In this document: in pieces, positions 22,534 through 47,808 of the stretch
How positions within the stretch are numbered: the stretch's first letter is position 1
How the letters are laid out: every line of letters starts with the position of its first letter
Made by a program: the position numbers and the translations under genes
The notes under the pieces: generated by a model
What the model saw: only the letters and a program-made list of their open reading frames with translations
The model's database searches: none
Told to the model about the DNA's origin: nothing
Origin: Candidatus Coprovivens sp.
GTDB lineage: Bacteria; Bacillota_I; Bacilli_A; RF39; UBA660
Length of the DNA: 64,000 nt
Direction of reading: 5' to 3'
Assembly: GCA_051892935.1 (NCBI GenBank)
Contig: JBJFGS010000038.1
Span: 32,001-96,000 of the forward strand

Positions 22534-22609
22534 GTAAGTATCACCTTATTAAATTTTATCACGTAGAAACAAAAAAAGCGAATATATTTTCGCTTTTTAC
22601 AAAAATGAC

Positions 22610-22843
22610 TTACAACTTATCATGATGTTTTTGATTAAATAACAACAAAGCCTTATCAAATTCATTATCACTATCTAGTCCAATTAAAAGTTCTGAATTA
22701 ATTTTATTATTAACTTTTCTAATACAAAAATCTTCTTCATCAGAAACATTAGTTAAATAAACATATGTATTATAATCACAATCAATTTCATCTAATACCA
22801 TATATTCTAAACCATCTTCTAATGTAATACACTTCATTTCCAT
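22610..22843 (-). CDS. Small acidic protein (DUF1292-like)
   Basis: EYMVLDEI...YVYL...DNEFDK pattern. Confidence 0.5.
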   Translation of the reverse strand: MEMKCITLEDGLEYMVLDEIDCDYNTYVYLTNVSDEEDFCIRKVNNKINSELLIGLDSDNEFDKALLLFNQKHHDKL

Positions 22844-22852
22844 AAAATCACC

Positions 22853-44018: not shown

Positions 44019-45101
44019 TTATTTAGCATTCACATAAGTTCTAAGTAAACTATAAATAATAGACACAACAGGAACCCCTAATAACATACCAAATACACCA
44101 CCAACAGAACCACCTATCATAACTGCTACTAAAACCCAAATGCTAGGTAAACCAATTTTTCCTCCAACTACTTTAGGATAAATTAAATTACCTTCTATTT
44201 GCTGTAATATCAAAAAGAACACAACGAATATTAGAGCTTTAAAAGGACTGATCATAAATATTAAAAATGCCCCAATAATACATCCAATAAATGCTCCAAA
44301 AATTGGAATTAACGCTGTAAACCCAACCATAACTCCTATAGTAGCTGCATACGGTAACCTTAACAAAAGCATACCTAATACACATAACAATCCCAATATG
44401 CAAGCTTCTAGCCCTTGTACCTTAACAAAATTAAAAAATGTTACATTAGAAAGCCTAACTATTTCCAAAGTTTTTTCATAAACCTTCTTACTACAAACTT
44501 TATTCAATAATTTTTTTAATTGCCTACATAAATTTTCTTTGTCAATTAAAACATAAATAGCAAATACTAAACCGACAAAGAAATTACATATAACAGTGAC
44601 AACAGAATTTACAAAACCAAATGAAATATTTATCAACAATTCTGAATTATCTTTGACTAAATTAGATATTTCTTCCATAAATCTATTATCTTCTAAATCA
44701 ATAATAGCAAGTTGTTCTTCAGAAAGACCAATCTTCTCACCTAATCTAACCACATTTTCTTGATATTCTGGAATATTATCTACAAATATCATACCCGCAT
44801 TTTTTAATTGCGGAATCAAAATAAACAATAAAATTATAATAAAGCCAAACACAGCCACCAAAGATAAAACAACACTAATAGGTCTTTTTCCTTTTTTTAC
44901 TTTCACTAATAACTTTTCTTCTATTTCTTTCATAATTACATTAAGTATAAAAGCAATAATAGCACCGATAATAAAAGGAAGTAATATTTTACCAAGTAAA
45001 CTTAAAAAACCTATAACCCATTGGTAATTCATAAGTAAAACAAATAAAACAACAGCATAAGTTATAAGAACTATTTTATTTTTAAATTCATCATTTCTCA
45101 T
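44019..45101 (-). CDS. AI-2E family transporter
   Basis: ALIPIFGAFIG, LQQIEGNLIYPKVVG, GMLLGVP. Confidence 0.92.
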   Translation of the reverse strand: MRNDEFKNKIVLITYAVVLFVLLMNYQWVIGFLSLLGKILLPFIIGAIIAFILNVIMKEIEEKLLVKVKKGKRPISVVLSLVAVFGFIIILLFILIPQLKNAGMIFVDNIPEYQENVVRLGEKIGLSEEQLAIIDLEDNRFMEEISNLVKDNSELLINISFGFVNSVVTVICNFFVGLVFAIYVLIDKENLCRQLKKLLNKVCSKKVYEKTLEIVRLSNVTFFNFVKVQGLEACILGLLCVLGMLLLRLPYAATIGVMVGFTALIPIFGAFIGCIIGAFLIFMISPFKALIFVVFFLILQQIEGNLIYPKVVGGKIGLPSIWVLVAVMIGGSVGGVFGMLLGVPVVSIIYSLLRTYVNAK

Positions 45102-45130
45102 ATATCCATCTCCTAAATAATTATATCATA

Positions 45131-45817
45131 TTAATTAGATATATTTAAAATATTATCCAAAAACTTCTTTATACATTTAATTTTCAAAATAAAATAAAAA
45201 ATCATACTCCCTAGAATATTTAAAATATAGTCATCAACATCAAAAGAACCAATTAAAGCTAGAAACTGTATCATTTCAATAATCAATATTATTATACTAA
45301 CACTAATAAAATAATTGTACCATTTTTCATCAGTAGACTTAAAAATTCTAGGTAAGAATAAAGCAAAAGGACAAAAAGCTAACACATTACCAAAAATATT
45401 GTAAATAAAATCACCAACAGCTAAATTACCATTTCTCAAAGCTAGCAAATAATTATTTATCGTAGAAAAAGGAATAATATTAAAAGAACTCTTAAAATAT
45501 TCTTCAAAATAATTCAAATTAATTAAATATATAGATACACCTTCCCTACCAAAATATTTATCAAATAAAGTTAAATTAAGCAACATAATAATATACAATA
45601 CAAACCAAATAAGAAAATTTAATTTATAAATTTTTTTATAATTAATAAATTTACTTCCAATATACGTAAAAATAACTATAAAAAGCAAAACAACAACTCT
45701 AATAATTGGTGAAGTTAAACTTAAAACCGAAAATTCAAAAATAAAATAAATAACAAGTAACACCAAAGAAATAACATAACTAATAATTCCTAGTATTATA
45801 TTTGTTCTATTCTTCAT
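45131..45817 (-). CDS. VanZ-like family membrane protein
   Basis: NIIPFSTI, NIFGNVLAFCPF, IEMIQ...GSFDVDDYILNILG. Confidence 0.88.
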   Translation of the reverse strand: MKNRTNIILGIISYVISLVLLVIYFIFEFSVLSLTSPIIRVVVLLFIVIFTYIGSKFINYKKIYKLNFLIWFVLYIIMLLNLTLFDKYFGREGVSIYLINLNYFEEYFKSSFNIIPFSTINNYLLALRNGNLAVGDFIYNIFGNVLAFCPFALFLPRIFKSTDEKWYNYFISVSIIILIIEMIQFLALIGSFDVDDYILNILGSMIFYFILKIKCIKKFLDNILNISN

Positions 45818-45871
45818 AATATCACCATATTCTCTAAACATTATATCAAACAACAATAGTTATTAAAACAT

Positions 45872-45908
45872 AAAAAAAGCACAAAGGCTGTCACCAAAGT
45901 GCTTTTTT
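45872..45908 (-). terminator. Intrinsic terminator of the ncRNA
   Basis: aaaaaagcac...gtgcttttttt stem followed by U7. Confidence 0.8.
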
Positions 45909-46362
45909 GTGAAGACCACACTATCTCGACTAAGCTGACAGGCTATGCGATAATAGCGCTCATTGAATTAAAAAACTAATCTCCACTGTACGTACTACTT
46001 AATAGCTCAATGATTAAATCGTAGAAGTTTTAAATATGATATATCTTGAAAGAATACCACTAAGTGAACATAAGTAACAAATAGTTAACTCAAACAAGAT
46101 ATATCAAAACTACTAACAAATCAAAACTGCCGAACACATTCCAAATTTCTTATTCTAAGCGCATCATACAAAGATATCTTTCAATCATTGTATTAGCAAT
46201 AATCCTATTGATCATTTTATTCAAATAACCAATAGAACTAAATAGAAAAGAAAAATTAAATATATTCACAGTAGCTCACTTACCAGCGTACTAATAAGTA
46301 AACTCCTAAACAATAAAGATAAGAAGTTGCCATATTTAGCTTCCACACTTTACTATTAAGTA
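45872..46362 (-). ncRNA. Candidate large structured ncRNA (~490 nt), family unassigned
   Basis: ORF-free; bounded by a consensus promoter and a terminator; multiple long helices containing G-U pairs; 5' end pairs with 45996-46005. Confidence 0.8.
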
Positions 46363-46367
46363 ACTTT

Positions 46368-46396
46368 ATTATATAACTAATAATATTATATGTCAA
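46368..46396 (-). promoter_or_regulatory. Perfect SigA promoter driving the ncRNA
   Basis: TTGACA (46396-46391), 17 bp, TATAAT (46373-46368). Confidence 0.88.
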
Positions 46397-46403
46397 TTAC
46401 TTT

Positions 46404-46715
46404 TTAAAGTTTTTCTATTTCTTCCTCTCTTATTCTTTTCAATCTTTCTTTTACTAATAATATCAATTCAGTACTTGCATTAACTTTAGGTAAAACTATC
46501 AAACTATCTTGTAATTTAGTTTTCAATTCTCTATCACACATAACCCTATTAGCTTCCTCTTTATAATTAAAGTTTTTTATCGAATTTTGTTTTACAAAAC
46601 TTCTTATATATTCTTCTATATCCTTTAAAACATACTCTTTTAAATCGTATTCATCCATTTCACTTATTCCATAATAAGCTCCTACTAAATACCTAAAAGT
46701 ATCATCTAAAACCAT
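46404..46715 (-). CDS. Hypothetical protein (103 aa)
   Basis: ORF with ATG and a GGATGTGAT RBS-like sequence; no motif recognised. Confidence 0.65.
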   Translation of the reverse strand: MVLDDTFRYLVGAYYGISEMDEYDLKEYVLKDIEEYIRSFVKQNSIKNFNYKEEANRVMCDRELKTKLQDSLIVLPKVNASTELILLVKERLKRIREEEIEKL

Positions 46716-46800
46716 TTAAATCACATCCAATATTATGATTATAACACATTAATATTTTTTTAATAAATATCTCTCCAAAAAACATGATATACTATTACTG

Positions 46801-47808
46801 GTGATAATAATGATAATAAGAATAATAGTTTTAATAATTCTTGTTGGTATAAACGGAATACTATCCGCTAGCGAAATAGCTTATATATCTTTAGACAAAT
46901 ATAGTATTTCTAGAAAAAAAGATAAAAAATCAAAAAAAATTACAAACATGTTAGAAAATGAAAATAAGTTTTTATCAACCATTCAAATAGGTATTACATT
47001 TGCTGGATTTCTCGCTTCAGCATTTGCGGCAGATTCATTTACAGATTTATTAATAGATTATGGTTTCTTTTTAATAAATGATGCTTTTACAGAAAACTTC
47101 TTAATGATAATTATAACATTAATACTATCATATTTTACGTTAATTTTCGGTGAACTCGTACCTAAAAAAATTGGTTTAGCTTATCCATATAAACTAGCAA
47201 CGATAACTATAGATTTTATTAGTGCTATTTCCATAATTGCAAATCCACTAATAATACTGCTAACAAAATCAACAGAAATAATATGCAAATTATTAAAAAT
47301 AAAAGAAAGAGATGATTCTCTAACAGAAAATGATATAAAAAAAATGATTATTACAGGAAGTCGTGAAGGTATTCTTGAAGAAAAAGAGAAAGAATATATT
47401 CTAAATATATTTAAGTTTAACGATAAAACAGCCAACAAAATAATGACACCAAAAAATCAAGTAGTAACTTTAGATACAAATGATACAATGCAAGAACTAA
47501 TAAGAAAAATAAAATCTTCAAATTATACAAGATTTCCAGTCTTAAATAACAATAAAGTAATTGGTTTTATAAACATCAAAGATTTCATTTATTTACATCA
47601 AACTCAAAAAAAAGTTTCGTTAAATGAATTAATAAGACCAGTACTAAAATTCAATAAAAATGAAAAAATTGATGATATATTTCGAATCATGCAAGAAAAA
47701 CACGAAACTTTTTCAATTATATTAGATAAGAATGAATTTATAGGAATCCTTACAATGGAAGATGCAATTGAAGAAATTGTAGGTAATATTGAAGATGAAT
47801 ACAATTAA
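46801..47808 (+). CDS. CNNM/DUF21 + CBS-pair protein (HlyC/CorB family)
   Basis: SASEIA, FLSTIQIGIT, FGELVPKKIG, IMTP, YTRFPV, GILTMEDAIEEIVGNIEDEY. Confidence 0.92.
   Translation: MIIMIIRIIVLIILVGINGILSASEIAYISLDKYSISRKKDKKSKKITNMLENENKFLSTIQIGITFAGFLASAFAADSFTDLLIDYGFFLINDAFTENFLMIIITLILSYFTLIFGELVPKKIGLAYPYKLATITIDFISAISIIANPLIILLTKSTEIICKLLKIKERDDSLTENDIKKMIITGSREGILEEKEKEYILNIFKFNDKTANKIMTPKNQVVTLDTNDTMQELIRKIKSSNYTRFPVLNNNKVIGFINIKDFIYLHQTQKKVSLNELIRPVLKFNKNEKIDDIFRIMQEKHETFSIILDKNEFIGILTMEDAIEEIVGNIEDEYN

Follow-up and report, generated by a model that had tools for sequence, protein, structure and literature searches.

The window analysed here is a 64-kb stretch of a Candidatus Coprovivens contig (JBJFGS010000038.1), and its longest part without an open reading frame (ORF) of at least 100 amino acids (aa), 547 nucleotides (nt) at 45857–46403, holds the subject of this study: a stand-alone RNA gene of ~490 nt (45872–46361, minus strand), equipped with a strong promoter and a terminator of its own. 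The genus is placed in the order RF39 in the available text of PMC8035907, and the genome (1.81 Mb, 53 contigs) is 92% complete. A preliminary description of the locus had called it the only long ORF-free stretch of the window; it is indeed the longest, but gaps of 340 and 319 nt also exist. The two elements that delimit the gene are the following:

46368–46396, minus strand: promoter TTGACA-17-TATAAT, a 12/12 match to the sigma-70 promoter
45872–45902, minus strand: terminator hairpin GCAC..GG-UGACAG-CC..GUGC followed by U7, with the loop UGACAG at 45888–45893

The promoter, recognized already in the preliminary description, is the sole 12/12 match among 18 promoter-like sites in 45000–47200 and one of 15 perfect sites in the whole genome. 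Related copies of the gene (see below) share the arrangement TTGAC-N17-19-TAnnnT with 5–7 nt up to the first base of the RNA. As all copies keep the same distance from the -10 hexamer to ACUUAAUAG, transcription probably starts at the A at 46361, the 7th base past the hexamer. The terminator hairpin and its U-run are conserved in 46 homologs, whereby the stem is 83.7% paired and covaries, with changes on both sides at 4 of 4 pairs. A simple terminator scan of 45000–47200 called 0 sites and passed over this hairpin because its stem has a U-rich internal loop.

The minus-strand RNA (491 nt) has a predicted minimum free energy (MFE) of −144.2 kcal/mol compared with −102.7 ± 5.2 kcal/mol for dinucleotide shuffles (z = −7.99), and none of 100 shuffles was as stable. 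The plus strand of the same locus reached only z = −2.82, in agreement with the earlier view of a strongly structured RNA gene on the minus strand, and the two other ORF-poor gaps gave −0.88 and −0.34. The lower stability belongs to the third-longest gap (22534–22852, minus strand), which contains an apparent short ORF and then a clean terminator hairpin. Among the other family members tested, z of the sense strand lay between −2.8 and −11.7 in 18 of 18, each below its own antisense. A search for ORFs of at least 20 aa in 37 family copies returned 65 in total, with no such ORF in seven copies and none conserved in position among the 37. A coding RNA was rejected on this absence of a conserved ORF and on the presence of a Shine–Dalgarno (SD)-like site in only 2 of the 65.

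The RNA is a member of a lineage-restricted, multi-copy family found in RF39-type uncultured gut Bacilli. A DNA search of 61 related genomes returned full-length relatives with 84% and 71% identity, as well as more distant ones conserved only in the promoter plus the first ~25 nt and in the last ~155 nt. R1, a covariance model for the 3' domain that was derived from 11 close sequences, matched 19 of the 27 genomes of the genus, and a pattern of promoter and 5' end, TTGAC-N17-19-TAnnnT-N5-7-ACTTRATAG, was present in 24 of 27, with 43 matches where the reversed control gave 3. By this pattern, these 24 genomes carry one to six copies, eight of them two or more, and the genome of the window has a single copy. 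Another genome (locus L054, G007:C37, minus strand) contains five complete promoter-to-terminator units in tandem, each with a middle of its own between the 5' motif and the 3' domain, a perfect promoter in front and a terminator behind. The terminators of its third and fifth copies are almost identical, which suggests a recent local duplication.

Outside the genus, R1 was too narrow (2 of 151 family genomes). A second model (R2), built from 45 R1 matches including a few duplicates and two spurious terminator-only rows, matched 12 of 151 genomes in 11 of 150 genera of the family, and a second sample of the family yielded two further genera. In total, at least 14 other genera of the same RF39-type family have the RNA, and none of 137 genomes sampled across 25 further families of the class gave an R2 match. 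The promoter and 5'-end pattern was at background outside the genus (9 of 398 genomes against 9 control matches), with 3 matches genuine on inspection. A scan of metagenomes with the pattern returned 80 loci, of which 13 were real, with 15 members, and the others mostly chance; two of the real loci are tandem pairs, and one record is from human gut by its title. The length of the members ranges from 263 to 598 nt.

The part shared by all these relatives lies at the 3' end, together with the 5'-terminal strand that pairs with it. Its elements, in the order of the transcript, are:

46353–46361, minus strand: 5' strand of helix P1, ACUUAAUAG, pairing with 45997–46005
46007–46013, minus strand: 5' strand of helix Ha, UCAUUGA, pairing with 45960–45966
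45997–46005, minus strand: 3' strand of P1, CUAUUAAGU, enclosed by the loop of Ha, so that an H-type pseudoknot results
45979–45986, minus strand: 5' strand of helix Hb, GUGGAGAU, pairing with 45909–45916 and crossing Ha
45960–45966, minus strand: 3' strand of Ha, UCAAUGA, pairing with 46007–46013
45918–45959, minus strand: stem-loop Hc/Hd with the apical 6-nt loop CUGUCA at 45936–45941
45909–45916, minus strand: 3' strand of Hb, GUCUUCAC, pairing with 45979–45986

The closing helix of the preliminary description corresponds to P1, and it is real: each of its nine pairs is formed in 45–49 of 49 copies, with compensatory double changes at 4 of 9 positions. The exchange ACUUGAUAG/CUAUCAAGU is found in at least three lineages, and AGUUAAUAG/CUAUUAACU, ACUUAGUAA/UUACUAAGU and CUUGAUAG/CUGUCAAG are further ones. 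The 3' strand of P1 is a conserved 9-mer ~130 nt from the 3' end; it is enclosed by Ha with a single base between the two helices. Ha is 90.1% paired in 46 sequences and has changes on both sides at 7 of 7 pairs. In the 11 close sequences, 94.3% of the cells of Hb are paired, with both-side changes in 7 of 8 pairs, and Hc/Hd is 86% paired with such changes in 9 of 14. Moreover, the CUGUCA loop of Hc/Hd (45936–45941) is complementary to the terminator loop UGACAG (45888–45893), and this 6-bp kissing contact is 96.0% paired in the 46 sequences, including matched changes such as CUGACA/UGUCAG, CUAUCA/UGAUAG and UUGUCAA/UUGACAA.

Taken as a whole, the 3' domain is 94.2% paired in the 11-sequence set, compared with 33–46% in controls with slid partners, which flatter the structure somewhat as it was derived from the same sequences. 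Double changes occur at 24 of 41 pairs in this set against 12.1 ± 2.1 in shuffles (0 of 500 reach the observed number). The 46-sequence set, from which three 'type C' copies were excluded, is 75.0% paired against 64.0% in shuffles (0 of 500) and 36–46% in the slid controls, so that covariation among homologs was found in both sets. The type C copies (L127:1883–2237; L129:1149–1509, minus strand; L141:1893–2247) have a terminator loop without UGACAG, and a UGACAA between Hc and Hb complements their CUGUCA loop. The partner is thus a single-stranded segment, and the same contact would be made from a different position in the chain.

These comparisons establish, as far as covariation can, a conserved core of ~190 nt that is predicted to be doubly pseudoknotted (P1 with Ha, Ha with Hb) and locked by the 6-bp contact between an internal hairpin loop and the terminator loop. 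The 3' hairpin domain of the preliminary description is the best-conserved part of the RNA. In contrast, the long-range pairing that it had proposed between 46180–46190 and 46008–46018 did not hold: 46007–46013 pairs with 45960–45966 instead (Ha, 90% paired, 7 of 7 double changes), 46180–46190 is an arm of a local hairpin, and by eye the proposed pairing is broken in one relative (L003). The pseudoknot built on it is replaced by those of P1/Ha and Ha/Hb and by the loop–loop contact with the terminator.

Between P1 and the core lies a domain of quite another character, closed in the own clade and its relatives by a second helix:

46340–46347, minus strand: 5' strand of helix P2, UGUGGAAG, paired by RNAalifold with CUUCUACG
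46028–46339, minus strand: hypervariable helix-rich domain inside P2, with three hairpins and a 12-bp helix
46020–46027, minus strand: 3' strand of P2, CUUCUACG, pairing with 46340–46347

Cognate P2 duplexes of differing sequence were found in about 20 copies, such as GUAAAAAC/GUUUUUAC, GUACAGAG/CUUUGUGC, GUAGAC/GUCUAU and UUAGAUAGU/ACUAUCUGU. Within the domain, the hairpins at 46276–46301 and 46203–46237 and the 12-bp helix of 46095–46106 with 46037–46048, all described previously, are in the MFE structure and retained in the two closest homologs, in which 26 of 135 pairs changed on both sides with the helices of the variable domain kept. The extension of the 12-bp helix by GUAG/CUAC was not confirmed, as CUUCUAC (46020–46027) pairs with the 5' GUGGAAG (46340–46347) in the covarying P2. 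A further hairpin is situated at about 46166–46195 with the loop UUGAAAGAUA. Across 37 copies, the domain varies from 92 to 400 nt and has no family-wide motif, only UGAAAG being enriched (10 of 37, mostly one clade), and the idea of a protein sponge acting through a common motif was rejected. The preliminary description could not recognise the middle ~310 nt as a hypervariable insert that lacks a conserved ornate fold.

One more element of the core stands directly beside P1:

45988–45995, minus strand: self-complementary stretch GUACGUAC, one base past the 3' strand of P1, a candidate dimerisation site

In most copies, such a palindrome lies zero or one base 3' of the P1 3' strand. A Watson–Crick palindrome of at least 8 nt is present there in 25 of 37 copies; among 11,628 other 18-nt windows from the same RNAs, used as controls, 9.0% have one. 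With G-U pairs allowed, 18 of 37 copies reach at least 12 nt, against 3.9% of the controls. Among the further metagenome members, 9 of 15 have at least 8 nt. The sequence itself is not conserved, as at least 15 different palindromes occur: GUACGUAC, GUGUACAC, GUAUAUAC, UGUACGUACA, AUACCGGUAU, AUUCCGGAAU, AUAUACGUAUAU, AUGUAAUUACAU, GUAUGCGCAUAC, AUGUAUAUACAU, UAUGCGCAUA, AUUGUGCGCAAU, AUAACUAGUUAU, GGAUAUCC and UUGCAUGCAA. Their centres are themselves self-complementary (ACGU, CCGG, AAUU, GUAC, GCGC). The stretch at 45988–45995 is unpaired in the MFE structure, and its form, GUACGUAC, which is also the commonest, can make an unstable hairpin of 2 bp at most. From a sequence that is free to change while its self-complementarity is kept up to the centre, and that has no stable hairpin of its own in the form GUACGUAC, we infer a pairing of two molecules, that is, a putative homodimerisation through the palindrome.

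In such a dimer, the 8- to 14-nt palindrome following the P1 3' strand would be single-stranded in the monomer and would pair with the same stretch of a second RNA molecule. The Ha–P1 stack of one RNA, the palindrome duplex and the P1–Ha stack of the other might then form one long helix at the centre of a symmetric homodimer. As paralogs mostly have different palindromes, each would prefer its own kind. A bolder version, which we regard as possible with the odds somewhat against it, is that of orthogonal self-sorting RNA particles, each with a private palindromic 'sticky end' and dimerising around a ~40-bp stack Ha–P1–palindrome–P1–Ha. If true, tandem paralogs with differing palindromes and variable domains would be a set of RNA particles in one cell, a modular RNA-only scaffold system without a described bacterial counterpart.

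The RNA is also represented in RNA libraries. Logan contigs from four metatranscriptomic libraries of two studies match it with 90–99% identity and cover 45894–46344, 45916–46340, 45956–46334 and 46000–46286, respectively. Three of the four lie entirely inside the RNA, the contig of run X2 has 30 unlike letters past 46340, and none of the four covers the flanking genes. One RNA-library contig has a depth of 444. Some DNA carry-over in RNA libraries is possible, yet DNA would cover the flanks as well. The first ~17 nt and the last ~22 nt of the RNA lie outside the contigs, which are thus uninformative on its ends. Strain differences at positions paired in the MFE structure keep the pair in 7 of 8 cases (X2) and 7 of 10 (X4). 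The transcript foreseen in the preliminary description is accordingly found as contigs confined to this stretch. In run X1, a 128-nt contig (depth 68) matches the P1/Ha region at 45984–46027 and then runs into letters that, by eye, resemble the linker of a copy from another species (G003b type); the sample thus seems to contain at least two members of the family.

Overall, we read the locus as the only copy in this genome of a new family, restricted to one family-level lineage of RF39-type gut Bacilli, of stand-alone, trans-acting structured RNAs that consist of a conserved core and a variable insert and form homodimers through the palindrome, a reading to which we give a probability of roughly 60%. 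The RNA matches no described family and would represent a new class. Its action is most likely in trans, and the sequence features would fit an abundant, self-dimerising scaffold RNA. The conserved core would be its working part, probably a binding platform for a partner, while the variable domain might be a tolerated or paralog-specific elaboration.

Several observations weigh against this reading. The copies are related, and the counts given above overstate their independence. On the wide 46-sequence MAFFT alignment, Hb and Hc are only 53–62% paired (Hb 53%), which we attribute tentatively to misalignment. A simple duplex search gave no convincing P2 in about 15 of 37 copies, and P2 is therefore proposed only for the own clade and its relatives. 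At 46306–46361 (minus strand), the 5' strands of P1 and P2 can form a local hairpin with CUUUAUUGUUUAGG/CUUCUUAU at nearly equal predicted energy, which competes with both helices; it is limited to the own clade, more distant copies do not show it, and it may be a co-transcriptional intermediate or a switch. R1 had no match in 149 other genera of the family, so the wider spread rests on the broader R2. No partner protein emerges from the neighbourhood either: among 49 loci encoding a relative of the 103-aa protein whose gene lies directly upstream (see below), the RNA is present in only 6 and absent from 40, which rules out an obligate partnership of the two. The contigs show neither strand, ends nor level, and as to 5' and 3' ends or dimers they are silent. 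Finally, 12 of 37 copies have no Watson–Crick palindrome of at least 8 nt, and in one genome it is all but missing from two of the five tandem units. In four members the inverted repeat has an odd centre (AUAUGC-U-GCAUAU), so that a small hairpin would be as plausible as a duplex containing a U-U in its middle.

The last points are those on which the strongest rival is based, namely that the palindrome is a tiny hairpin stacked on P1, or a nuclease or protein site, and the RNA a monomer. The inverted repeats with an unpaired centre base and the copies with short palindromes only speak for it. However, a hairpin of 2 bp is all that the commonest form allows, a loop has no need of a self-complementary centre, and the sequence varies widely between copies, even inside one genome, which a protein site would hardly tolerate. 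We consider the monomer unlikely, while giving it more weight than any of the rivals that follow.

Less probable still is a base-pairing regulatory RNA, in which the core would be a stability or chaperone scaffold and the variable domain a carrier of paralog-specific seeds for messenger RNAs (mRNAs). An own promoter and terminator, many diverging paralogs per genome and a variable domain without a common motif would all suit such a regulator, and tandem sibling small RNAs (sRNAs) are known in Firmicutes. Nevertheless, the variable domain is almost wholly paired in the predicted folds and undergoes compensatory evolution without kept single-stranded seeds, and few sRNAs are as long as 263–598 nt or have a doubly pseudoknotted core.

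The gene neighbourhood has to be considered before the next rival can be judged. Upstream of the RNA are two genes:

46404–46715, minus strand: 103-aa acidic, probably helical protein (P0001), directly upstream of the RNA
46801–47808, plus strand: protein with CNNM and CBS domains, two genes from the RNA

The usual order in the genus is the divergent CNNM/CBS gene, the 103-aa hypothetical protein, the RNA or RNAs, a VanZ-like gene and an AI-2E family transporter. The 103-aa protein matches no Pfam or NCBIfam family and has 479 close relatives in a narrow family of uncultured gut Bacilli (123 representatives at 50% identity); it adjoins the RNA only within this genus, and in most other genera it is encoded where the RNA is absent. 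The window as a whole has a GC content of 22–30% and a GC skew of the plus strand that is strongly negative throughout (−0.18 to −0.61 per 2 kb), and in the examined part at 36–56 kb the long ORFs are mostly on the minus strand.

Such an order might suggest a cis-acting, riboswitch-like leader controlling the downstream VanZ and AI-2E genes via the terminator, as the RNA precedes one or both on the same strand in most genomes of the genus and its terminator loop takes part in the tertiary fold, a feature shared with certain expression platforms of riboswitches. On the other hand, up to five self-contained promoter–terminator units stand in tandem, other copies follow unrelated genes in unrelated contexts, no alternative anti-terminator pairing was seen, and the RNA contigs stop within the RNA, none extending into the downstream gene (contigs being weak evidence on ends). 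With varied neighbours in place of a constant downstream gene and no read-through among the contigs, the leader was rejected as very improbable.

The comparison with known RNAs leaves hardly any room for a very divergent OLE, ROOL, GOLLD, raiA or housekeeping RNA. The size class, the phylum and the uncultured, reduced-genome host would agree with one, and variant OLE RNAs are known in such hosts from the available text of PMC11332333. A cmscan of the window against 4227 Rfam 15 families gave 0 matches at gathering scores, GOLLD, raiA and HEARO included. A permissive run on 45700–46600 (E up to 10) gave three chance-level matches only (E 0.64–3.4), to a CRISPR repeat, a snoRNA (small nucleolar RNA) and a plant-virus pseudoknot, all far under their thresholds. 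ROOL (RF03087, gathering score 99.1 bits) had no match in the window or in the permissive run, nor in the genome, where control genomes were equally silent, and OLE (RF01071, 50 bits) had none at the RNA locus in either run. ARAGORN called no transfer RNA and no transfer-messenger RNA (tmRNA) in the window.

The genome has its housekeeping RNAs at other loci: RNase P type B (265.3 bits, contig C14), tmRNA (133 bits, C24), small signal recognition particle (SRP) RNA (50.9 bits, C27) and a 6S-like RNA (41.3 bits, under the 46.4 cut-off, C25). A divergent housekeeping RNA was rejected on these grounds, and so was an OLE variant, since the genome has a separate OLE RNA of 489 nt and 230.4 bits outside the window (G000:C5:3019–3507, L153). 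The organism thus has two large structured RNAs. The score of its OLE RNA falls slightly short of 235 bits, the floor that the available text of PMC11332333 gives for 'variant 2', a short form typical of the RF39 clade. The genome also contains both this OLE RNA and the CNNM plus CBS gene, whose domain make-up would match that of MpfA. According to the same part of PMC11332333, genomes with OLE RNA tend to lack MpfA. The earlier statements that the RNA is of unassigned family and lacks the hallmarks of tmRNA, RNase P and SRP RNA are thereby borne out, and of the two alternatives offered there, a ROOL-like member or a new class, the new class is supported. No description of the RNA was found in the literature searched; supplementary candidate lists of motif surveys may contain the locus, as may those of PMC8040213, whose main text mentions neither Tenericutes, RF39 nor a tandem arrangement.

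An mRNA for a small protein or a type I toxin is equally remote, as is a mobile element or one derived from a phage: a 5'–3' closing helix and multi-copy tandem arrays are seen for some type I toxin mRNAs, but no conserved short ORF with a ribosome-binding site exists in the 37 copies (SD-like site in 2 of 65 ORFs), BLAST against 50,697 phage and 72,556 plasmid records gave no match, 0 of 7 pattern matches in viral contigs fitted the model, on which a phage, plasmid or viral origin was rejected, and no integrase or transposase was seen beside the examined copies (ORF listing and tblastn with seven window proteins only).

Bacterial RNAs that combine large size and an intricate fold with an unknown function are rare; OLE, ROOL, GOLLD and raiA each opened new biology or architecture. 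What is new here is the combination of a pseudoknotted core tied to the terminator loop, an insert of 92–400 nt, diverging tandem paralogs and a freely evolving palindrome, which makes RNA self-recognition directly testable with a transcript of 263–490 nt. The hosts are RF39-type gut bacteria that are not yet cultivable, and in gut metatranscriptomes few transcripts of its neighbourhood appear to be as abundant as this RNA, so it may matter for the physiology of a group of gut bacteria that is widespread yet obscure. Its general reach is restricted by the narrow distribution.

Among known systems, OLE is close in kind: it, too, is a large, ornate and highly structured non-coding RNA that occurs in Bacillota, and there also in the RF39 clade. 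Cryo-electron microscopy has shown that it forms homodimers (PMC12286853, available text), a likeness proposed for the present RNA from its palindromic sequence signature. OLE is described as single-copy, conserved along its length and widespread (PMC11332333, available text). The present RNA, in contrast, is hypervariable in its middle, stands in tandem arrays of several copies and is very narrowly distributed, and it shows no match to OLE in sequence or structure. ROOL and GOLLD are similar in being stand-alone large bacterial RNAs of unknown function, and GOLLD also has one variable and one conserved half. Both form RNA-only homo-oligomers (PMC12286853, available text). The RNA studied here is smaller (263–598 nt), has another core, shows no phage association and matches neither model. 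The dimer initiation site of retroviruses offers a parallel to the palindrome, being short, varying in sequence between lineages and pairing like with like. There, it is placed in a hairpin loop and forms a kissing complex, whereas here it would be unpaired in the monomer and directly adjoin the 5'-terminal helix, so that the P1 helices of both molecules would stack coaxially on the two ends of its duplex. Riboswitches of the cobalamin class have a conserved loop–loop contact with the expression platform, comparable to the conserved kissing interaction with the 3'-end hairpin found here. In contrast to riboswitches, the RNA is a self-contained gene with its own promoter, standing in tandem and in varied contexts, with no Rfam riboswitch match and no sign of an alternative fold releasing the terminator.

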